64,000 nt of DNA from Spirochaetia bacterium (lineage in GTDB: Bacteria; Spirochaetota; Spirochaetia; UBA9216). The notes under the pieces are model-generated. The model ran no database searches and was not told where the DNA came from. It saw only the letters and a program-made list of their open reading frames with translations. Both the position numbers and the translations under genes were made by a program. The stretch spans positions 1,600,001 through 1,664,000 of the forward strand of contig OY776510.1 of NCBI GenBank assembly GCA_963675665.1, in the 5' to 3' direction. This document shows, piece by piece, positions 1-55,634 of the stretch (position 1 is its first letter; the number at the start of each line of letters is the position of its first letter).

Positions 1-1085
1 GTGTAGGCGGCGTGGAAGCCTACAGGCAGGACCTGGAAATTCCGGATAAGTACGGACTAAGCCAGTGTATAGGAGATATTATCGGGCCGGGCGGTATGTT
101 CAGGTTTCTGCGGGCTTATCCGGAGCTGCTTAGAATATGCAAAGACATGGAAGACCTTTGTCCCGATGCGTATTTTTTCAATTATACCAACCCTATGGCA
201 CCGCTGTGCCTTGCGCTTCACAAATCTACAAGCATAAAGGTATTCGGTTTCTGTCACAATGTTCAGAGCACAGCACAGCAGCTTTCGAACTATCTGCAGG
301 TTGACGAATCAAGAATTTCATACTGGGCTGCCGGAATTAACCATATGGACTGGTTTCTTGAATATAAAGTCGACGGCAAGGATGCTTATCCGAAACTGTT
401 TGAAATATCGCAGAATGATGAAGATATAATCAAGCTTGCCGATTATGAGCAGGATTACAAGAGTATGGGGGTAAGGCTTGTTGACCTCGTAAGATTCAAG
501 ATTATGCATAATTTCGGAAGATATCCGTCGGAATCTCCTTTTCACATGTCCGAGTATGTTCCTTACTTTAGAAAAAATGAGAAGATGATTGAGGATTTTC
601 AGGTTACCAACAGATGGTGGTTTGCCCATGAATGTGCAGCTGATGAGTACTTTGAGGAGTTGAAAGGAATGCTTGAGTCGGGGCAGGATATCCCATGTGA
701 GAAAACATTTGAATATGCACCGGAAATTATTCATGCAAATATAACCGGAAAACCTTTCAGGTCAAATCTTAATGTTATGAATACAGGGCTTATATCGAAC
801 CTTCCGGAAAACAGTGTAGTAGAGGTTCCGTGTTATTCGGATACTGAAGGTATTCATCCGTGTTATGTAGGCGAACTTCCCTATGCTCTTGCTGCGTTAA
901 ACCTGACAAATGTTAATATGCATATAGGAATGGCTGAAGCTGCAATAAGCAAGAAAAAACAGAGGATTTATGATGCGGTTAAGATGGATCCGCTGACAGC
1001 TGCCAAACTGACGCTTGATCAGATTGATGATATGGTTGCGGAATTGATAGAGGCCAATGCTGAATACCTTACCGATTTTGAATAG
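1..1085 (+). CDS. GH4 family NAD+-dependent glycosidase (alpha-galactosidase/alpha-glucosidase, MelA-like), 5'-truncated by the window edge
   Basis: The frame is open from the window start (VGGVEA...). GH4 motifs: GD..GPGG.FR.LR, NYTNPM, G(F)CH, AGINH..W, VEVPC, DPL. Confidence 0.88.
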   Translation, partial: VGGVEAYRQDLEIPDKYGLSQCIGDIIGPGGMFRFLRAYPELLRICKDMEDLCPDAYFFNYTNPMAPLCLALHKSTSIKVFGFCHNVQSTAQQLSNYLQVDESRISYWAAGINHMDWFLEYKVDGKDAYPKLFEISQNDEDIIKLADYEQDYKSMGVRLVDLVRFKIMHNFGRYPSESPFHMSEYVPYFRKNEKMIEDFQVTNRWWFAHECAADEYFEELKGMLESGQDIPCEKTFEYAPEIIHANITGKPFRSNLNVMNTGLISNLPENSVVEVPCYSDTEGIHPCYVGELPYALAALNLTNVNMHIGMAEAAISKKKQRIYDAVKMDPLTAAKLTLDQIDDMVAELIEANAEYLTDFE

Positions 1086-1126
1086 AGCCTGACAGTTGAA
1101 GCAGGAAATATAAACGAATGATCCAT

Positions 1127-1152
1127 GCAAGCTGTCCGAAAGGGCAGCTTGC
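1127..1152 (+). terminator. Stem-loop between the GH4 and M24 genes (terminator or mRNA stabiliser)
   Basis: gcaagctgtcc-GAAA-gggcagcttgc, followed by a T-rich stretch. Confidence 0.5.
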
Positions 1153-1181
1153 TGTTTAAGATTTGATTTAGGAGTCGCCGC

Positions 1182-2279
1182 ATGACTGATGAAATAAGAT
1201 TCAAGGAAAAACAGCTTAGGGAATATATGGCTGAAAAAAAGCTCGACGGGATTTTATTTTCCACCAGAGAGTTTTTTTCATGGATAACGGGAGGTTCGGT
1301 AGATTATATAATAGAAACAACCGAGATAGGTGTTGTTGATCTGCTTATTACCCGGGAAGGAAAATACTGTATAGCCAGCAAGATTGAACGGTTCAGAATA
1401 ATGGAAGAAGAGCTTGCCGGGCTTGATTATGAGGTTCTTGAATTCAACTGGTGGGAGTCGGACAATAAAAGCATAGTGGCCGAAGTCATGCATGGTAAAC
1501 GGTTCGGCGCCGATACGGATTTTCCCGGGGGAATTAATGTGTATGAAGAACTGAAGCCCCTGAGATATTCGCTCAGGCCTGAAGAGGTTGAAAGATTCAG
1601 GAAATCTTCATTTGAGTGTGCAGTAGCGCTGGAAGAAACCTGCAGATCGATCAGGGTCGGAATGACGGAATTCGAGATTTGCGGTACGCTAATGAAAAAT
1701 GCCATGGATTTTGGTATTGAACCTGCTGTTGCACTTGTGGCGTCGGATGAAAGAATTTCGAAATACCGGCACCCGATACCGAAAGGAAAAAAGATAGAAA
1801 AATATGTTCTGGTTGTTATATGCGGCAGAAGGGAAGGGTTGATAACAAGCTGTTCAAGGTTTGTTCACTTTGGAGAACCTCCCGCAGAAATAAGGGAAAA
1901 ACACTCAAAAATTATTAGGGTTGATGCTGAATATATTACAAATACGATACCGGGAAGAAAGGTTTCAGACGTATTTAAATTTGCAATGAATAAGTATAAA
2001 GAAATTGGTTATGAAGACCAGTGGCAATTCCTGCATCAGGGAGGTCCGGCAGGATATTCCATACGGGATTATCACGGAACACCCTGCGTGGAAGGTTCTG
2101 TGATGCCCAATCAGGCTTTTGCATGGAACCCTTCTGTGCCGGGAACCAAGTCGGAGGATACAATCATAGCTACGGAAAACGGGCCGGAAATTATTTCTGC
2201 AACAGGGAAATGGCCTGTAGTTGAAGTTACTGCCGGGAACGGTATAAAGGTGGACCGACCGGATATCCTTGTAATGTAA
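1182..2279 (+). CDS. M24 (pita-bread fold) Xaa-Pro peptidase/creatinase-like protein
   Basis: Creatinase-type N-terminal domain; RHP, HQGG, WNPS and KSEDT motifs; SD aggag upstream. Confidence 0.8.
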   Translation: MTDEIRFKEKQLREYMAEKKLDGILFSTREFFSWITGGSVDYIIETTEIGVVDLLITREGKYCIASKIERFRIMEEELAGLDYEVLEFNWWESDNKSIVAEVMHGKRFGADTDFPGGINVYEELKPLRYSLRPEEVERFRKSSFECAVALEETCRSIRVGMTEFEICGTLMKNAMDFGIEPAVALVASDERISKYRHPIPKGKKIEKYVLVVICGRREGLITSCSRFVHFGEPPAEIREKHSKIIRVDAEYITNTIPGRKVSDVFKFAMNKYKEIGYEDQWQFLHQGGPAGYSIRDYHGTPCVEGSVMPNQAFAWNPSVPGTKSEDTIIATENGPEIISATGKWPVVEVTAGNGIKVDRPDILVM

Positions 2280-2315
2280 GAATTATTCCTGCTCTGGCTT
2301 GTTGGATGGGGGCTG

Positions 2316-4640
2316 TCATCTCAACAAGCTTTTGCTGATAGCCGCTCCTGAATCGAGAAATAATTCCTCACCATAAAGCAGTATCGAAATATCTCCGGAA
2401 GAGTTGTTTTTTATTTCGATATCCGATTGTCCTACACTGATTGTCAGCGTATGTCCAAGATGAAAGAGCTTAAAACTATATGATGTCCAGGCTACCGGAA
2501 TTGCAGGACTTAGACTTAATCTGGTTCTGTCATATCTCAAGCCTCCGAATCCCATTACAATGGCCATCCAGCTGCCGCTCATGCTTGTAATATGGCAGCC
2601 GTCCCTGGCGTCATTGTTATAATCATCCAAATCCAGTCTTGCGGTTCTTAAGTACATTTCATAGGCTTTTTCAGAGTAACCTAACCTGGAGGCTATAATT
2701 GAGTGAACACATGGTGAAAGTGAAGATTCATGTACGGTTCTCGGTTCATAATAATCAAAATTGTTCCTTATCGTCTCCTGATCAAATTCATTTTCAAATA
2801 AAAACATTCCCTGTAAAACATCCGCTTGTTTAATAAAGGGTGAACGCAGGATTCTGTCCCAGGACCAGTTCTGATTAATCGGCATTTCATCAGACGAGAG
2901 ATCAGAAACGGTAAGGTTTTCTTTATCAAGGTAACCATCCTGCTGCAAAAAGATTTTACGATCGTTATCATAGGGCAGATATAACTGTTCACTGACTTTC
3001 CTGAAATTATTGAGTTCATCAGAATCCAATTTTAATCTCAAAGCAACAGCTTTATATGCAGCCGGATTCTTTTTCTTCAGCTCGACGCAGACCGAATGCG
3101 TATAGGAAAGGCACCATGATGCTATTTTATTTGTATACCAGTTGTTGTTTACATTATTCTCATATTCATTGGGCCCTGTAACTCCGAGTATTACATATTT
3201 GCCTTTAACCTCTGAAAAACTTGCCCGCTGAACCCAGAACCTGGAAATACCCGCCAGAACATCTATTCCGTAATCTTCAAGATATCTCTCGTCACCGGTA
3301 CAGTTTACATAATTGAAGACAGCATAAGCTATTGCCCCGTTACGGTGAATCTCCTCGAACGTTATTTCCCATTCATTGTGACATTCCTCGCCGTTCATCG
3401 TAACCATGGGATATAACGCTGCCCCGTCGGTAAAACCCAGTTTCCCGGCATTTTCAATAGCCTTTTCAAGATGATTATATCTGTACATAAGAAGGTTTCG
3501 GGCAATGCTCTGCTCCGAGGTGCCGAGATAGAACGGAAGACAAAAGGCTTCAGTGTCCCAATATGTAGAACCGCCGTACTTTTCTCCGGTAAATCCTTTG
3601 GGGCCGATATTCAACCTTGCATCCTTTCCCGTATAGGTCTGGTTCAACTGAAAAATATTGAATCTGATGCCCTGCTGGGCTGCAACTTCTCCGTCAATTA
3701 CCAGATCAGAATGGCTCCATATATCAAGCCATTTCTGACTGTGTTCTGTTGCCAGTTCCCGAAAGCTTTTTCCGGCATTTTTTGCAAGCAGCTGCTTTCC
3801 AAGCTGCTTAAGTTCTTTTTTGGGATGGTCTCTTGTCGTCATGCAGGAGACATATTTTTCCAGACGGAATATTTCTCCGGCTTTAATCTCAAGTTCAAAA
3901 CTTCTTGAAACAAAGCCCGCCTCAACATGATCTTTGATGCCTGCATAAAAGTCAGCCGAAGGTTCTTGACCATTGATTGATAAACGATGAGAAGCAGTTA
4001 CAAACAGAGAATATTCTGTCTTCCTTGTTGTTAATGAAACCATCATATATTGTTTATCAGTATCCTGAAAATTATGCTCCCAAAAGAACTCATCATAGTT
4101 TGCATCTTCGTTCTGAACATTGCCGTCCAAAACCGAGTTTATCTGAAGTAAAGCATTCCTTTCAGGGCAGCTGATTGAATAGCTCAAAGCGCCCAATTCC
4201 GCCTGAGACAGGCTAACAAAGCGGCAGGCATCTACAGTCACAGTGGTGCCGTCCGGAAGGCGGGTCTTGAAACTTCTGTTTAATATCCCGTTCTGCATAT
4301 CCAGATCACGCTTGAATTCAATAATCCCGGTCTTCGCAAGATCGAGAATTTGTCCGTTTATCTTTATCTCAAGACCTGTCCAGTTTACAGAGTTGAGGAC
4401 CTTCGCAAAGTATTCCGGATAACCGTTCTTCCACCATCCGACCCTGGTTTTGTCGGGATAATAAATTCCGGCCATATATGTTCCCTGAAGACTGTCTCCG
4501 CTGTAGCTTTCTTCAAAATTACCCCTCATCCCCATATGTCCGTTGCCAATGCTGAAAATGGATTCGGAGATCCGGTTATTCTCGGGATGAAATCCATTTT
4601 CAATAATATGCCATGGATCTTTTTCCAAATAAGTCTTCAT
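2316..4640 (-). CDS. GH65 maltose phosphorylase (774 aa; true start MKTYLEKDPW at 4640)
   Basis: ESIFSIGNG.MG.RG, KGFTGEKYGG.TYWDTE, EWEITFEEIHRN, GPNEYENN, IKQADV and HESSLSP motifs; lies downstream of a maltose ABC system. Confidence 0.92.
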   Translation of the reverse strand: MKTYLEKDPWHIIENGFHPENNRISESIFSIGNGHMGMRGNFEESYSGDSLQGTYMAGIYYPDKTRVGWWKNGYPEYFAKVLNSVNWTGLEIKINGQILDLAKTGIIEFKRDLDMQNGILNRSFKTRLPDGTTVTVDACRFVSLSQAELGALSYSISCPERNALLQINSVLDGNVQNEDANYDEFFWEHNFQDTDKQYMMVSLTTRKTEYSLFVTASHRLSINGQEPSADFYAGIKDHVEAGFVSRSFELEIKAGEIFRLEKYVSCMTTRDHPKKELKQLGKQLLAKNAGKSFRELATEHSQKWLDIWSHSDLVIDGEVAAQQGIRFNIFQLNQTYTGKDARLNIGPKGFTGEKYGGSTYWDTEAFCLPFYLGTSEQSIARNLLMYRYNHLEKAIENAGKLGFTDGAALYPMVTMNGEECHNEWEITFEEIHRNGAIAYAVFNYVNCTGDERYLEDYGIDVLAGISRFWVQRASFSEVKGKYVILGVTGPNEYENNVNNNWYTNKIASWCLSYTHSVCVELKKKNPAAYKAVALRLKLDSDELNNFRKVSEQLYLPYDNDRKIFLQQDGYLDKENLTVSDLSSDEMPINQNWSWDRILRSPFIKQADVLQGMFLFENEFDQETIRNNFDYYEPRTVHESSLSPCVHSIIASRLGYSEKAYEMYLRTARLDLDDYNNDARDGCHITSMSGSWMAIVMGFGGLRYDRTRLSLSPAIPVAWTSYSFKLFHLGHTLTISVGQSDIEIKNNSSGDISILLYGEELFLDSGAAISKSLLR

Positions 4641-15149: not shown

Positions 15150-16154
15150 ATGAAAAAGTTCTTAAACAAACCGGAAAAATTTGTTGATGAGATGATAGAA
15201 GGGATAATGGCGGCGCATTCTGACAAGTTGAAATATGTCAATGATGATTTACGCTGTGTCTGTACAGCCACCGGCAGAGAAGGAAAGGTCGGCATAGCGA
15301 CCGGGGGCGGATCAGGGCATCTTCCGCTGTTTCTGGGATATGTGGGCGACGGAATGCTTGACGGTTGTTCGGTAGGCGGAGTCTTTCAGTCGCCAAGCGC
15401 CGAGCAGATGTTTGAGGTTACAAAAGAAATAGACAGGGGTGCAGGCGTTTTATATATATACGGAAATTACGGCGGCGATATCATGAACTTCGATATGGCG
15501 GCGGAAATGGCAGATATGGAAGATATCAAAGTGCTGCAGGTAGTAGCCGGAGAGGATGTGGCATCGTCAAAGAAGGGCGAGGAACACAAGCGCCGCGGCG
15601 TTGCCGGGATATTTTTTGTGTACAAGATTGCAGGCGCCTGTGCGGATGATCTGAAATCTCTTGAAGAGGTGAAACGTGTTGCTGATAAAGTTTGTGCCAA
15701 CGTCAGGACCATGGGAGTAGCGCTGAGCCCCTGTATAGTGCCCGAGGTGGGCAAACCGTCTTTTCAGATTGAGGATGGAGAGATGGAAATCGGCATGGGA
15801 ATTCACGGGGAACCCGGCATTGAGAAGGGGCCGCTTAAACCCGCAGATGAAGTGGTCGAGACAATGCTGAATGCAATCCTGGTGGATCTTCCTTATGAAA
15901 GAGGGGCTGAAGTAGCGGTACTTATGAACGGGCTCGGAGCAACCCCGAAAGAAGAACTGTATGTGATGTATAGAAAGGTTGCTGAAATACTCAAGGCAAA
16001 AGGGATCTCGGTGTTCCATGTATATGCCGGTGAGTTTGCCACCTCTATGGAAATGGCGGGCGCATCGATATCGCTTCTGAAACTTGATGACGAACTGAAA
16101 AAGTATCTTTCAAGACCTGCATATACACCGTTTTTTGAACAGGTTCAGCTCTAA
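15150..16154 (+). CDS. dhaK: Dihydroxyacetone kinase family subunit K
   Basis: GGGSGH.P, NY.GD.MNF, RRGVAG, GMGIHGEPG. Confidence 0.92.
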   Translation: MKKFLNKPEKFVDEMIEGIMAAHSDKLKYVNDDLRCVCTATGREGKVGIATGGGSGHLPLFLGYVGDGMLDGCSVGGVFQSPSAEQMFEVTKEIDRGAGVLYIYGNYGGDIMNFDMAAEMADMEDIKVLQVVAGEDVASSKKGEEHKRRGVAGIFFVYKIAGACADDLKSLEEVKRVADKVCANVRTMGVALSPCIVPEVGKPSFQIEDGEMEIGMGIHGEPGIEKGPLKPADEVVETMLNAILVDLPYERGAEVAVLMNGLGATPKEELYVMYRKVAEILKAKGISVFHVYAGEFATSMEMAGASISLLKLDDELKKYLSRPAYTPFFEQVQL

Positions 16155-48921: not shown

Positions 48922-50421
48922 TCACAACAGCCCTTTCGTTGATTCATACAACTCCCGGAACCTTCCGTATTTTTCATCATAAAAACCGAATAAACTGCCG
49001 TCTGGAACTATCTCGTCGGCAACCCCGACCCATTTCCCGGATTCCTCAGAGCCTGAATAATAACCGCTTCCGACGGCGGCAAGAAAAGCGTCGCCATAGC
49101 AGGCCCCGAGCGTTTTATCCGGCAGCTGCTGCCGCAGTCCGGTTATATCGCATATGATTTGCATAAGCTGCCGGCTGTCTGCGGCTCCGCCGATTGCTAC
49201 AATTCGTCCGGCAACAGCGCCCTCTGCCCTCATTGCTTCAATATTGTGTTTGATGCCGAAACCGACGGCTTCCTGCAGCGCACGGAAAATATCGCCGGGC
49301 TGGGTCTGAAGGCTGAGGCCGAAGATGAGCCCTTTTGCATCAGGGGCATTAAGCGGTGTTCGTTCGCCGGCGAAATAGGGCAGAACAGTAAGCCCGCTCG
49401 CCCCGGGGGATGATTTTGCGGCAAGTTTTTCCCATTCAGCCATTGTTCTGCCGGGAAATGTATCGTTGAACCATTTGAACATGCTGCCTACAGTCGCCAT
49501 GCCGCCTGTCAGGACCGAGCTTCCGGCATCAATAAAGTTGGATGTCCAGAAAGTTTTAACGGGGTTCAACTTTTCGGTCCGCATAATGAAAAAGTTGCTG
49601 CTGCCGTACATCATCATCATGTCGCCCGGTTTGCATACGCCGGAACCGACAGCCTCTGCTGCGGCGTCGGAGGTCCCCGTAACGACCGGGGTTCCGGCTG
49701 GAATCCCGGTAAGTTCAGCAGCGGTGGAGGTCACGGTTCCGGCTATTTCACTGCTCCAGAGCAGTTCAGGCAGCCATGCCGGGTTTATGAGTTCCGTGTT
49801 TTGAAGGCTGTTAAGAGAGAAATCCCATCTTTTTTCGCGTATGTTGAAAACCGGCGCGTAGCCGATTGCGTTATAGATATCCAGCGTATAGCGTCCGGTC
49901 AGTTTGTAAACAATATAGCCTGTTGCAGTCAGGATTTTTTCGGTTTTTTTCCAGATCTCAGGCTCATTTTTCTTAATCCACCTGACCTTCGGCAGGCATG
50001 CCTGTGATGAAAGGTTTTGGCCTGTCATATTGAATATATTATCAATTCCGACAGATTCTTCGATTTCTGTTATTTCGGTCGCCGCGCGTGTATCAATTCC
50101 GTACATTATGCCGGGCCTTAACGGTAATCCCTCCCTGTCGACCGGAAGTACACATGGCGCTATGGTACTTACCCCGACGGCTTTGATACTTTCAGGCGGA
50201 AGATTGTGATCGGTTTTCAGTTTTATCACAAGTTTACGGCTGAGAAAGACGAAATCTCCCCACCATACGGTCTCCGCATCCTGTTCATAGAACCCGGGGT
50301 GCGGCATTTCCATGCTGTGGGGAACGGTTTCTTCGGCCATAACAGTTCCGTGAGTATCAACAATAACGCCTTTTGATGAGCCTGTACCGATATCAATTCC
50401 AATAAAGCATTCTTTCACCAT
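48922..50421 (-). CDS. FGGY family carbohydrate kinase
   Basis: IGIDIGT...K, EQDA, D.RA, LPYF.GER.P, GG, GDA.LA..G.G. Confidence 0.92.
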   Translation of the reverse strand: MVKECFIGIDIGTGSSKGVIVDTHGTVMAEETVPHSMEMPHPGFYEQDAETVWWGDFVFLSRKLVIKLKTDHNLPPESIKAVGVSTIAPCVLPVDREGLPLRPGIMYGIDTRAATEITEIEESVGIDNIFNMTGQNLSSQACLPKVRWIKKNEPEIWKKTEKILTATGYIVYKLTGRYTLDIYNAIGYAPVFNIREKRWDFSLNSLQNTELINPAWLPELLWSSEIAGTVTSTAAELTGIPAGTPVVTGTSDAAAEAVGSGVCKPGDMMMMYGSSNFFIMRTEKLNPVKTFWTSNFIDAGSSVLTGGMATVGSMFKWFNDTFPGRTMAEWEKLAAKSSPGASGLTVLPYFAGERTPLNAPDAKGLIFGLSLQTQPGDIFRALQEAVGFGIKHNIEAMRAEGAVAGRIVAIGGAADSRQLMQIICDITGLRQQLPDKTLGACYGDAFLAAVGSGYYSGSEESGKWVGVADEIVPDGSLFGFYDEKYGRFRELYESTKGLL

Positions 50422-50443: not shown

Positions 50444-51511
50444 TTACAGATAGATCTTTCCGCCCTCGACGACTATTTCACCGTCGACAGTCACTGCTCC
50501 TTCCGTTCTTATGTCCTTTACAATATCCCAGTGAATTGCAGATTTATTAAGTCCGCCGCATTCGGGATAGGCACGTCCCAATGCGGTATGAACTGTTCCG
50601 CCGATTTTTTCATCAAGCAGAATATCGTTGCAGAAACGATCAATCTGATAATTTGTACCGATTGCAAATTCGCCGATCAGCGATGCTCCGGAATCTTTAT
50701 GGATTATCGACTGAAAGAACTCCTGTTCGGTTTCTGAAGATGCTTCAACAAGGCGGCCGTCTTTCCAGCTGAGCCTGATGCCGTTTACAAGCCGGCCGCC
50801 CAGTACTCCGGGGTTCTCAAAGCTGATTGTGCCGTTTAAAGTGGAAGTAACGGGAGCAGTGGCAATTTCTCCGTCGGGAAGGTTGTTTGTTCCTGCAAAA
50901 GACATCCATTTGCGGTTTTCAATTGAGAATGACAGGTCGGTTTTCCACCCGGTTATCCTTACCTGTTTTCCATTCTCAAGCCTGCGGCACCATTTTTCCC
51001 ATTTTATATTTTCCTTTTCCCAGTCTATAAAGCAGGCGTTGAAGAACATATCCATGATTGCTTCACTGGATGTCATTGCCTGCTGTGCAAATGCATCATT
51101 CGGGACCCTGATAAGGCACCAGCGGGTTTTTTCCCATCTTGCTGATGAGACAATGCCCATTGCATTCTGGTTTGATGCAAGCTTGTCGGCAGGAATATCC
51201 TGAAGTTCATAGAGGTTGTGAGCTCCGCGCAGGCCTATATAGACGTCGGCCCATTCCATTCCGTACATTTCAATCTCGGGGACCCAGTTTATTTGTTCAG
51301 AATTACCGTGTTCTAGCACTGAGCGGCGGAGAAGTTCCGATTTCATCTGGATTTGCGGAAATGCCCCCGCCTTAACGGTCGCTTCATATACCGATTGCGC
51401 AAGCGGCCATGTTTCAACCTCAACCATTGCAATCATTACTTTTTCGCCGGGCTGTACTTTTGTCGAGTAATTTACAAGAATATCTCCAAGCTGTTTCCAG
51501 CGTTTATCCAT
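50444..51511 (-). CDS. M29 family (aminopeptidase T/AmpS-like) metalloprotein
   Basis: LV.YS..VQPGE, NLPDGE, GEFAIG, DEKIGGT.H.ALG, SAIHWD. Confidence 0.85.
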   Translation of the reverse strand: MDKRWKQLGDILVNYSTKVQPGEKVMIAMVEVETWPLAQSVYEATVKAGAFPQIQMKSELLRRSVLEHGNSEQINWVPEIEMYGMEWADVYIGLRGAHNLYELQDIPADKLASNQNAMGIVSSARWEKTRWCLIRVPNDAFAQQAMTSSEAIMDMFFNACFIDWEKENIKWEKWCRRLENGKQVRITGWKTDLSFSIENRKWMSFAGTNNLPDGEIATAPVTSTLNGTISFENPGVLGGRLVNGIRLSWKDGRLVEASSETEQEFFQSIIHKDSGASLIGEFAIGTNYQIDRFCNDILLDEKIGGTVHTALGRAYPECGGLNKSAIHWDIVKDIRTEGAVTVDGEIVVEGGKIYL

Positions 51512-51523
51512 GGTCTTCCTCCT

Positions 51524-52327
51524 CTACCTGAGTGTTTTAACCTTGTCCATGAATTCCTTAACACGTCTCTCATCCACTTCGTTATAGAATTCCCCGTCCC
51601 GTTTGAATGTTGTTGCGGTAACAGTTCCGTCTGCAATAGCCAGCTGTTCTTCAACGTTTGAAAGCCTGACCCCCGTGTTGGCAAAAACCGGGGTGTCCGG
51701 TATTGCGTCTTTTACCTTTTTCAGTACGGAAGCGTCGGTTTCCGCTCCGGCGGTAAGCCCGGAAACGCATATTGCATCGGGCAGGTGGTTGAATACGGTT
51801 GAGCGGGCTATATCGGCAATGTCGCGTTCAGCCAGGTATTTTGCTGCTTCGGGTACTATGTTGAACAGCAGTTTTACGTGTTCTCCTCCGATTTTATACT
51901 GGTGCCGGATTACCTCGCCGCAATTTGTGTTCCACAGGCCGAAATCGCTGGCATAGACGCCGGAGAAGATTTCCCGGACAAAAAGCCCGTCCACAGCCAC
52001 AGCCAGATCTATTGAAGCTTTTGGGTCCCAAAGGACATTGACTCCATAGGGGATTTTAAGTTCGCACTTCAGTTCGCCTATTATTCTCGCCATTGTCGTG
52101 TAAGTTATCGGTTCAACTTCGGTCAGGTACGGAAGGCTGAATTCGTTTGAAAACATAATGCCGTCTACACCTCCGTTCTGAAGCGCGACAAGATCCTGTC
52201 GGGCCATTTCGATAACCCAGTCAATTCCCTTTTCCCTGTTCCATCCCGGGTCGCCCGGAAGCGCCTGAAGATGGCACATCGCTATTACCGGTTTGTTTAC
52301 ATTAAATACTTCTTTAAGCCAGTTCAT
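51524..52327 (-). CDS. BtpA/SgcQ family TIM-barrel protein
   Basis: KP.IAM.HL..LPG.P, GGVDG..FSNE.S.PY, GVNVL.D, P.FANTG; start MNWLK after SD aggag. Confidence 0.9.
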   Translation of the reverse strand: MNWLKEVFNVNKPVIAMCHLQALPGDPGWNREKGIDWVIEMARQDLVALQNGGVDGIMFSNEFSLPYLTEVEPITYTTMARIIGELKCELKIPYGVNVLWDPKASIDLAVAVDGLFVREIFSGVYASDFGLWNTNCGEVIRHQYKIGGEHVKLLFNIVPEAAKYLAERDIADIARSTVFNHLPDAICVSGLTAGAETDASVLKKVKDAIPDTPVFANTGVRLSNVEEQLAIADGTVTATTFKRDGEFYNEVDERRVKEFMDKVKTLR

Positions 52328-52347
52328 AATTTCTCCTATAAAAAGTT

Positions 52348-52889
52348 TCCGCATGGATTGGCGGGTCTGTGATATGAAGTTTGCAGGTGAAAGCCGGCAA
52401 ACTTCAAAATGAAAAAGTACACGGAAGTACTTTTATCATAAATCCTCCTGAAATAATTCCCGCCATGGATTGGCGGGTCTGTGATATGAAGTTTGCAGGT
52501 GAAAGCCGGCAAACTTCAAAATGAGAAAGTACACGGAAGTACTTTTATCATAAATCCTCCTGAAATAATTCCCGCCATGGATTGGCGGGTCTGTGATATG
52601 AAGTTTGCAGGTGAAAGCCGGCAAACTTCAAAATGAAAAAGTACACGGAAGTACTTTTATCATAAATCCTCCTGAAATAATTCCCGCCATGGATTGGCGG
52701 GTCTGTGATATGAAGTTTGCAGGTGAAAGCCGGCAAACTTCAAAATGAAAAAAGTACACGGAAGTACTTTTATCATAAATCCTCCTGAAATAATTCCCGC
52801 CATGGATTGGCGGGTCTGTGATATGAAGTTTGCAGGTGAAAACCGGCAAACTTCAAAATGAAAAAAGTACATGGAAGTACTTTTTTCAT
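52348..52889. repeat. Tandem array of a 112-bp unit (about 4.8 copies), each with three hairpins
   Basis: catggattggcggg recurs at 52352, 52464, 52576, 52688 and 52801 (periods 112,112,112,113). The copies are near-identical and have no unique spacers. Confidence 0.97.
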
Positions 52890-53650
52890 TCTATGTCTAT
52901 TTTTACGCCGCTGTTCTGCAGCGACTGTTTCACTTTTAAATTCGGTTCGCTGTTAGTGACAAGTATGTCTATCTCGTCGGGGGTGCAGACAAGCGAAAAC
53001 GCCGTTTTTTCAAGCTTGTCGGAGTCCATTAATGCGATTGTTTTTTTTGAGTGGGAGATAATAAGTTTCTTTATTTCGGCATCTTCGATAATGTATTCGG
53101 TAAATCCGGCATCAGGGCTGAAAGCAGCCGTCGACATGAAAAATTTATCAAAGTATAGGTTTTCGAAGGTCCTGCGGGTGATATCTCCTACAAGAGAGCC
53201 TTCGGTTTTTCGGACAATTCCTCCTGCGAGGATGGTTTCAATGCCGGGATTCGACAGGAATTTTCCCGCTATATGAATGCTCGGTGTAACAATTGTAAGG
53301 TTTCTGAACGACTGAAGCTCTTCAGCAAAAACCAGGGCTGTAGTTCCAGAATCTATAGCTATGGTATCGCCTTCTTCAACATACTCCGCGGCCTTCCTGC
53401 CGATAAGGCGTTTTTTATCCGAAGAAATATTTTTTCGTACACTGAAGGGCGGTTCGTAACTTCTGCTGACTTCCTTGACAGCGCCGCCGTGGGTCCTTTT
53501 CAGAAAGCCTTCGTTTTCCAGTTCCGACAGGTCTCTTCTTATCGTCATTTCGGATACGAATAAAGCGGCAGCAAGCTCGCTGACAAGAACTGATCCGCTG
53601 TTTTTTACAGTGTTTCTGATGTATTGTTTGCGCTTGTCCGATACGCTCAA
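52886..53650 (-). CDS. DeoR/GlpR family regulator
   Basis: VSEMTIRRDL..LE..G...RTHGGA, IDSGTT. Confidence 0.93.
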   Translation of the reverse strand: MSVSDKRKQYIRNTVKNSGSVLVSELAAALFVSEMTIRRDLSELENEGFLKRTHGGAVKEVSRSYEPPFSVRKNISSDKKRLIGRKAAEYVEEGDTIAIDSGTTALVFAEELQSFRNLTIVTPSIHIAGKFLSNPGIETILAGGIVRKTEGSLVGDITRRTFENLYFDKFFMSTAAFSPDAGFTEYIIEDAEIKKLIISHSKKTIALMDSDKLEKTAFSLVCTPDEIDILVTNSEPNLKVKQSLQNSGVKIDIE

Positions 53651-54983: not shown

Positions 54984-55634
54984 ATGGAGCGATTTACGTA
55001 TAAAAATCAGTTTTTCTCTGAAACGGTGATAAACATTTACAAGGATCTCCTTGTTTCTGAAGTATGTACTGATTCCCGCAGAGTTGATGCCCTGGTCGGA
55101 GATTCCGCTGAAACAATGAAATTTCTAAAGAACCCGGATGCCGCGGTTTCCGGATCTATTGAGGATGTTGCGTTATGGACTGCTGTTATTGCCTATGCCG
55201 CACAGCGAACAAATGGTTTTGATAAAGCAGGCCTTTTTTACAGCGCTGCACTTAACGCAGGATATCAGCTGTCCGAAAGGCTCAAAAAATCGGGAGAAAT
55301 CAATTCCGATGTTCTGCCTTCGCTGTGTTACTGGGCATTTGCCGAACTGTTCCGTCTTTCGGGAGATAATATCTGGCTTGAGTACTGCTGCCTGTTTGAG
55401 GAGAAAATATTTGTCTCAGGCGAAGATTTCTGTCTGGATGACCAGGTTTCATATATTGCCGATTTCAGGGCTGCCGCAGTATGGGCTTTGTACAGGGCAG
55501 GAAATGCCGAGTATTACCGAAATCTTCTGTTAAAAGCATCAGCTCAGGCTGTAATTACTACTGATCAGAATATCGCCGCCGGACATCCGTATGAAATAAT
55601 CATCTACGGCGCGGCAGCTGAATACGGAGAATAA
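54984..55634 (+). CDS. Hypothetical protein (alpha-helical)
   Basis: 216-aa ORF with SD aggagg, tightly packed between the ROK and GH94 genes; no family recognised. Confidence 0.65.
   Translation: MERFTYKNQFFSETVINIYKDLLVSEVCTDSRRVDALVGDSAETMKFLKNPDAAVSGSIEDVALWTAVIAYAAQRTNGFDKAGLFYSAALNAGYQLSERLKKSGEINSDVLPSLCYWAFAELFRLSGDNIWLEYCCLFEEKIFVSGEDFCLDDQVSYIADFRAAAVWALYRAGNAEYYRNLLLKASAQAVITTDQNIAAGHPYEIIIYGAAAEYGE

Follow-up and report, generated by a model that had tools for sequence, protein, structure and literature searches.

A Tandem Array of Five TD-2-Family Units between a DeoR-Family Regulator Gene and a BtpA-Family Gene of a Spirochaete

Results and Discussion

The window analyzed in this study, a stretch of 64,000 nucleotides from the genome of a Spirochaetia bacterium, harbors a tandem array of five three-hairpin units located between a DeoR-family regulator gene and a BtpA-family gene. 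The array unit belongs to the TD-2 family (Rfam accession RF03162) and, being already catalogued, does not represent a new family. The array itself is a real feature, in which a known but uncharacterized family occurs in a new arrangement and a new host. Family membership, hairpins with covariation, conserved loop motifs, and, in related genomes, clustering and mobile-looking composites were observed. The explanation favored here, with a confidence slightly better than even, is that the array arose by local tandem amplification of a REP/BIME- or MITE-like TD-2 member and would act in the operon mRNA as the reverse complement of that element. TD-2 has been represented in Rfam since its description in 2007, with a reported range of one species. 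The results presented here extend this range to other Treponema species and a Spirochaetales MAG, and indicate that TD-2 undergoes tandem amplification and that, in one clade, it is carried within a bounded element whose ends are inverted.

Extent of the Array and Differences between Its Units

One single tandem array was detected in the whole window by Tandem Repeats Finder (positions 52352-52889, period 112, 4.8 copies, 98% matches, score 1030), which bears out the 112-bp array noticed when the DNA was inspected without database searches (hereafter, the sequence-only reading). A repeat search gave start-to-start spacings of 112, 112, 113, and 113 nt. All units are TD-2-type copies on the plus strand. 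Unit 1 (52343-52448), on the btpA side, features a degenerate 5' arm of hairpin 1, unit 2 (52455-52560) carries an A>G change in stem 3, and these are followed by unit 3 (52567-52672) and unit 4 (52679-52785), the latter being 113 nt long because of one extra A. Unit 5 (52792-52898), on the deoR side, represents the best TD-2 match, and its stem 3 is perfect and includes the deoR stop codon TGA (52886-52888, minus strand), as the sequence-only reading had claimed. Two further details of that reading, namely a gcc>acc change turning a U-G pair of unit 5 into U-A, and the A>G change creating a G-U pair in unit 2, are likewise present in the sequence. Altogether, the copy-specific variants comprise one indel, four substitutions, and the degenerate first hairpin of unit 1, the edge units being the most divergent, and they argue against a simple assembly duplication.

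The linkers between the units are 19 nt long (52440-52458, 52552-52570, 52664-52682, and 52777-52795). On the plus strand, they consist of CCUCC followed by TGAAATAAT, and on the minus strand, of AGGAGG and ATG preceded by a U-rich tract. A simple duplication of the whole spacer was rejected because, in a hand alignment, the internal linkers differed from the btpA-proximal linker by about one-third (identity of only about two-thirds), whereas the units are 98% alike. In the 112-nt units, the minus-strand AGGAGG and ATG (52437-52449, three equivalent linkers) open an ORF of 11 codons; the ORF of the 113-nt unit comprises 37 codons, and its ATGA end overlaps the ATG of the next unit.

It is hardly conceivable that the array is an assembly duplication or that it encodes small peptides behind each AGGAGG-ATG of the minus strand. 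Each internal unit does offer a Shine-Dalgarno sequence and an ATG followed by an 11-codon ORF on this strand, but the 1-nt indel of the 113-nt unit results in a 37-codon frame, and the small-peptide reading was rejected because the frame is not conserved between units. A collapsed or expanded assembly is opposed by the copy-specific variants and also by tandem or clustered copies in other, independently assembled genomes.

In agreement with the sequence-only reading, a CRISPR array was rejected as well: the units abut without unique spacers, and no Cas domain was found by Pfam among the 54 ORFs of the window. ToxI-like arrays consist of tandem repeats of approximately 36 nt directly upstream of an endoribonuclease toxin gene. 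A type III toxin-antitoxin RNA array of this kind was discarded, as the unit measures 112 nt and the downstream gene belongs to the BtpA family. A distant blastn search of plasmid and phage sequence collections with two units returned no match.

Assignment to the TD-2 Family and Predicted Folding

All five units matched the Rfam TD-2 RNA, which belongs to clan CL00124 together with TD-1, in full length and on the plus strand. The scores for units 5, 4, 3, 2, and 1 were 60.4, 51.7, 43.8, 41.4, and 36.6 bits, respectively, so that the TD-2 gathering score of 48.7 bits was passed by two of the five units (5 and 4); units 3, 2, and 1 stayed below this cut-off yet were aligned full-length with E values of 7e-5 to 2e-3, the alignment of unit 1 covering 52349-52444. 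No other Rfam family reached its gathering threshold in the window, and TD-1 gave no match on the operon (minus) strand at E values up to 10. The sequence-only reading, which had named an Rfam search as a check, had recognized no known family.

In the accessible text of the original description, TD-2 was reported from Treponema denticola only, with 36 copies, alongside 28 copies of TD-1, seven of which overlap TD-2 in reverse complement; both motifs were noted for their good covariation and for hairpins that are disjoint, and no function was assigned (Weinberg et al. 2007, PMC1950547). The window units share with the TD-2 motif the three disjoint hairpins, their order, and conserved loop and stem positions, and their covariation agrees with the Rfam model. 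They differ from it in a longer hairpin 2 with a GAAA loop, in the presence of a conserved linker, in the antisense location between operon genes, and in the host, the G+C content being 42-51% here. Moreover, the available portion of the TD-2 paper, dealing with T. denticola, makes no mention of tandem arrays (PMC1950547), whereas the window contains five head-to-tail copies.

ViennaRNA folded a single unit into three hairpins, coinciding with the three stems per unit drawn by the sequence-only reading. Unit 5 (52797-52894, plus strand) reached -44.6 kcal/mol compared to a shuffle mean of -18.5 kcal/mol (z -8.2), none of 200 shuffles being as good, and units 4 and 1, likewise compared with shuffles, folded in the same way. 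For the whole array, values of -223.3 kcal/mol (z -14.3) and -210.2 kcal/mol (z -13.9) were obtained for the plus and the minus strand, respectively. Both strands folded into a chain of these same hairpins, with the plus strand being better by 13 kcal/mol; for units 1 to 4, the plus strand was energetically better by 2-4 kcal/mol.

A scan for sigma-70-type promoters found none in the array for a plus-strand transcript. Each internal unit is preceded, 7 nt ahead of its hairpin 1, by an extended -10-like TGAAATAAT (52448-52458 and equivalent linkers, plus strand), and unit 1 by TATAAA at 52337-52342 on the same strand. These -10-like boxes remained unflagged by the scan because they are without a -35 element.

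Relatives in Other Spirochaetes, Covariation, and Strand Preference

A genome scan with a loose degenerate pattern returned at least 119 loci, of which 105 of those listed were chance matches outside the spirochaetes; neither T. denticola nor the source genome of the window was among the listed loci. The 14 spirochaete loci among those listed originate from Treponema (11), Treponemataceae (1), and Spirochaetales (2). In 12 of these 14 listed loci, Rfam identified TD-2, with 17 matches, 13 of them above the gathering score. The relatives obtained in this way among the loci listed are T. vincentii OMZ 806, T. putidum, six Treponema MAGs, and one Spirochaetales MAG.

Seventeen of these copies served to build a covariance model (R1), its training sequences matching by construction. 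Strong R1 matches were restricted to the listed spirochaete loci and the window, where units 1 to 5 scored 58.3, 66.2, 68.6, 76.0, and 77.7 bits, and the plus strand received 58-78 bits versus 12-30 bits for the minus strand. In the 105 listed non-spirochaete loci, R1 produced two hits only, with E values of approximately 0.8, and with search filters switched off, no copy beyond the array locus was found in the 64-kb window. Based on the R1 and Rfam matches among the loci listed, TD-2 is distributed more widely than T. denticola and appears to be confined to spirochaetes.

In an alignment of 22 copies that was fitted to the model and hence leans towards structure, 89.9% of the cells were paired and 23 of the 30 pairs changed on both sides, a level that none of 500 shuffles reached; slid-alignment controls gave 40-49% paired cells. 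The window copies lie one column off in hairpins 1 and 2 of the MAFFT alignments A1-A3, which is inherited by the model-based alignment A5, and because of this misplacement, the window rows contribute spurious unpaired cells to the covariation and strand counts. G-U versus A-C counts for the plus (TD-2) strand were 21 versus 9 overall and, with the window excluded, 13 versus 4; the energy difference between the strands averaged -1.1 kcal/mol, with the TD-2 strand being favored by 12 copies, the other strand by 8, and 2 copies being tied; the window rows are partly misaligned in the alignment underlying these values. Together, they suggest a weak preference for the plus strand across the TD-2 family. 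The sequence-only reading had proposed a structured RNA that folds best antisense to the operon. The orientation of this proposal was right, as TD-2 matches the plus strand with 36.6-60.4 bits and this strand folds better by 13 kcal/mol; the remainder of the proposal is weakened by the faint family-wide energy and G-U asymmetry and by the lack of a plus-strand promoter in the scan.

The Window Subtype and Its Genomic Surroundings

Among the matches listed, the nearest copies to the window units were two copies (1240-1344 and 2478-2606) in a Spirochaetales MAG (locus L027), where positions 415-3908 comprise, in this order, genes for DeoR, an Ldh_2-family protein, and malic enzyme, with one antisense TD-2-like copy after each of the first two genes. 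As in the window, both copies are antisense and situated between co-directional genes. At all three independent sites of this subtype, read on the operon strand, the first hairpin has the upstream stop codon at its base, and behind the last hairpin come a U-rich tract, a Shine-Dalgarno sequence, and then the subsequent start codon. The equivalent hairpin of L027 possesses a U7 tail and was also flagged as terminator-like. The element blocks of the two genomes are almost identical, whereas the DeoR proteins share only 30% identity.

The position of the element directly after a DeoR-family gene in both the window and L027 would fit a unit bound by DeoR, a recombinase, or a transposase as its operator or recognition site, in double- or single-stranded DNA instead of RNA. 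Invariant loops with covarying stems, moreover, resemble the hairpins recognized by REP-associated transposases. Recognition at the DNA level is nevertheless considered very unlikely, in view of the identity of only 30% between the two DeoR proteins, the unrelated genes adjoining other TD-2 copies (TetR, ABC transporter, and aminotransferase), and the window being without a transposase among its 54 ORFs (Pfam).

In all four Treponema loci with a judgeable orientation (L043, L053, L060, and L066), the TD-2 strand is sense and therefore opposite to the window, the ORFs of the Treponema loci being self-called and only some of them Pfam-backed. Orientation was uninformative for L010 and L044, with convergent or divergent genes, and for five loci with flanks of only 300 nt. 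The sense orientation in Treponema and the bias of G-U pairs and folding energy to the plus strand are points that seem to speak against an action of the array on the operon strand.

Conserved Loops and Their Resemblance to CsrA-Binding Sites

The loop of hairpin 3 contains GGA in 21 of 21 copies, preceded by ACA in 19 of 21, and the loop of hairpin 1 contains GGA in 19 of the 20 full-length copies (by inspection). Since the stems covary and the loops are fixed, these data point to a sequence-specific recognition of the TD-2 loops, and a purely structural role would leave the invariant GGA loops unexplained, which counts against the attenuator described below. The loops thus appear to be under sequence constraint and resemble CsrA sites. 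In the CsrA consensus determined by SELEX, ACA and GGA are fully conserved, with GGA located in hairpin loops, as far as the available part of that work describes (PMC4347634). In 5 of 21 copies, the 12-mer of hairpin 3 is identical to this consensus (RUACARGGAUGU); it agrees with the consensus at 11 of 12 positions in five more, and at 10 of 12 in eight, all window units included.

Owing to this resemblance of hairpin 3 to the SELEX site, a transcribed plus strand could represent a CsrA-binding RNA, its two A-N-GGA loops per unit adding up to ten sites in the five-unit array. Such an RNA would titrate CsrA in the manner of CsrB or RsmZ, and copies residing in UTRs would recruit CsrA in cis. 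Multiple GGA motifs in hairpin loops, as in CsrB/Rsm-type RNAs, were indeed found (two per unit, ten in the array), and the covarying stems with fixed loops, the G-U pairs and folding energy favoring the plus strand, and the extended -10-like TGAAATAAT in each linker of that strand are consistent with this interpretation. T. denticola possesses csrA, arranged in a fliW-csrA cluster according to the accessible text of the corresponding paper (PMC9481697).

Several observations, however, render a CsrA-binding RNA unlikely. No plus-strand promoter was found by the scan, transcripts starting from the -10-like box would begin within hairpin 1, no conserved promoter was seen in the 90 nt preceding 18 copies, and no clear terminator was found for a plus-strand RNA. 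The window units reach only 10 of the 12 consensus positions, and all copies of the window subtype are antisense to genes. The fixed loops would be accounted for just as well if a transposase recognized the DNA. In spirochaetes, CsrA is thought to be antagonized by the protein FliW (PMC9481697). A literature search retrieved no paper tying TD-2 to CsrA, and in its available portion, the 2007 report brings up CsrB only regarding the MAEB motif (PMC1950547). TD-2 shares with CsrB and RsmZ the many A-N-GGA hairpin loops, with hairpin 3 equal or nearly equal to the SELEX site and the binding being putative; it differs in that no dedicated promoter or terminator was found and in occurring as many dispersed copies, whereas CsrB and RsmZ are encoded by one or two genes. 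If CsrA did bind and the plus strand were transcribed, the array would be a CsrB-like sponge with ten sites in a spirochaete, a lineage for which only the protein antagonist FliW is known, and the dispersed TD-2 copies in UTRs would constitute a CsrA regulon borne by a mobile element.

Repetitive and Mobile Behavior of TD-2

In T. vincentii (locus L043), three TD-2 copies occur within 340 nt, two of them direct and one inverted (2482-2577, minus; 2587-2694, minus; and 2719-2812, plus). Inverted pairs are present in loci L108 and L082, and the five copies of the window are all direct. One MAG was represented by at least three TD-2 loci among the matches listed (L010, L066, and L117). In L117, a partial TD-2 (383-470, minus strand), consisting of half of hairpin 2 and of hairpin 3, is located directly upstream of a full copy; judged from its sequence, a partial tandem duplication is therefore also present in a Treponema MAG.

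Bounded composites were recognized in T. vincentii OMZ 806 (L043, 2404-2904, approximately 500 bp) and in two Treponema MAGs (L082, 206-513, and L084, 204-512, approximately 310 bp). They feature terminal inverted repeats of 16-17 nt with TD-2 modules inside, the pairwise homology between the three loci ends exactly at these inverted repeats, and the flanks are unrelated. Such boundaries look like the signature of a mobile, MITE-like element. No target-site duplication was evident at the three composites. The composite element holds TD-2 modules in both orientations. Judged by terminal inverted repeats and discrete ends, the composite of the T. vincentii group would qualify as a MITE, and the window array would not, since inverted ends of the T. 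vincentii type had no match in the window within three mismatches. A transposase domain was not found among the 54 window ORFs by Pfam.

Tandem amplification and the bounded element of one clade suggest that TD-2 probably represents a repetitive or mobile element rather than an sRNA gene. As the window holds one locus in 64 kb, without a transposase or inverted ends, we infer the repetitive nature of its units from the relatives. Among the three interpretations offered by the sequence-only reading (a structured RNA antisense to the operon, a REP/BIME-like element, and a copy-number-variable attenuator), the REP/BIME-like element is the best supported; this standing is due to the behavior of the family, i.e., its copies per genome in T. 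denticola, its clusters, and its bounded composite.

TD-2 appears to resemble REP/BIME elements and MITEs in being composed of multi-copy extragenic palindromic modules. Common to TD-2 and REP/BIME elements are clusters that are both direct and inverted, as well as sites between operon genes, just after stop codons; the likeness to MITEs lies in the bounded composite with inverted ends and is limited to the T. vincentii group. Unlike a REP, which is one hairpin of approximately 35 nt, the TD-2 unit comprises three hairpins in approximately 100 nt, and, unlike REP elements and MITEs, TD-2 was seen without an associated transposase and without an evident target-site duplication, the window array also being without inverted ends. 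REP elements have been linked, as an idea, to stop codons and trans-translation; literature searches on REP elements with stop codons and trans-translation and on REP elements of Treponema yielded nothing usable. A further likeness concerns the MAEB motif of Burkholderia, in which, according to the accessible part of its report, 2-12 copies of a hairpin element with linkers that are conserved precede metabolic genes (PMC1950547). MAEB differs from TD-2 in its unrelated sequence, its single hairpin, and its occurrence in another phylum.

Operon Context and Predicted Attenuation

The genes surrounding the array are all encoded on the minus strand in the order deoR, array, btpA, M29 peptidase-family gene, and FGGY kinase gene. 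The DeoR-family regulator gene upstream of the array (52886-53650) was identified by the Pfam domains DeoRC (2.9e-45) and HTH_DeoR (4.6e-17), and the first gene after the array (51524-52327) by the domain BtpA (1.4e-90). The M29 peptidase-family gene (50444-51511; Peptidase_M29, 4.8e-61) and the FGGY sugar kinase gene (48922-50421; FGGY_N and FGGY_C) follow, the gaps among these three genes being 12 and 22 nt. Sigma-70-like promoter sites were predicted upstream of deoR on the minus strand (53733-53705 and 53699-53672), and none inside the array or before btpA, the scan covering promoters of the sigma-70 type only. From this arrangement, we infer that the deoR promoter drives transcription of the array within a deoR-btpA-M29-FGGY mRNA, as the reverse complement of TD-2.

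On the operon strand, the reverse complement of hairpin 1 forms terminator-like hairpins in four units (52459-52477, 52571-52589, 52683-52701, and 52796-52814, minus strand), each followed by AAUUAUUUCA. Six terminator-like sites were found between 51400 and 54000 versus 2.9 expected from shuffles, and four of the six are located inside the array on the minus strand. In these four units, a 7-bp GC hairpin of -13.5 kcal/mol is combined with a U-rich tail. The U-tracts behind the hairpins are interrupted (AAUUAUUU), so that termination may be weak. The hairpin nearest to btpA (unit 1, minus strand) reached -5.9 kcal/mol only, no better than shuffles, and the AGGAG and ATG of btpA come after this degenerate hairpin.

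According to the amplified-element explanation favored in this study, transcription from the deoR promoter would yield a deoR-btpA-M29-FGGY mRNA carrying the reverse complement of TD-2, in which the first hairpin would begin at the deoR stop codon, four units would each provide a 7-bp GC hairpin with a U-rich tail, and the hairpin closest to the btpA ribosome-binding site would be degenerate. Approximately 14 stable hairpins, four of them terminator-like, would thus separate the regulator from the enzyme genes. With this number of hairpins in the mRNA, partial termination or protection from decay, scaled by copy number, would be the likeliest effect. By partial termination, a barrier to mRNA decay, or both, the ratio of regulator to enzymes would be set by the number of units. 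The four units with a terminator-like hairpin suggest a copy-number-dependent attenuator, a putative function that is plausible. Slippage or unequal recombination among the units probably gave rise to the amplification and continues to alter it; the amplification would be recent, and unequal exchange would keep the units alike. Such a copy-number-variable string of hairpins between regulator and enzyme genes would be a simple and mutable expression dial.

The array may also be nearly neutral. Its amplification would then be that of a selfish or neutral repeat tolerated in a long spacer, with btpA being expressed from its own unrecognized promoter and with no regulatory consequence. The behavior of the TD-2 family as a mobile or repetitive element, the near-identical units implying a recent expansion, and the restriction of the promoter scan to the sigma-70 type fit this interpretation. 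It is nevertheless regarded as rather doubtful, given that the same geometry of stop codon and Shine-Dalgarno sequence recurs at three sites in two genomes with DeoR proteins only 30% identical, and that an mRNA with fourteen stable hairpins would probably be affected by them.

Two further features of the window were noticed outside the operon. An ORF of 216 aa (54984-55634, plus strand), located between genes for a ROK-family regulator and a GH94 phosphorylase, had no Pfam match at E values up to 0.001. Between positions 16000 and 44000, the G+C content rises from approximately 42-44% to 49-51%, and the genes of this block encode lactate racemase, ETF, 2-oxoacid:ferredoxin oxidoreductase, a sigma-54 activator, AllG/AllH-like proteins, acetate kinase, and aldehyde:ferredoxin oxidoreductase.
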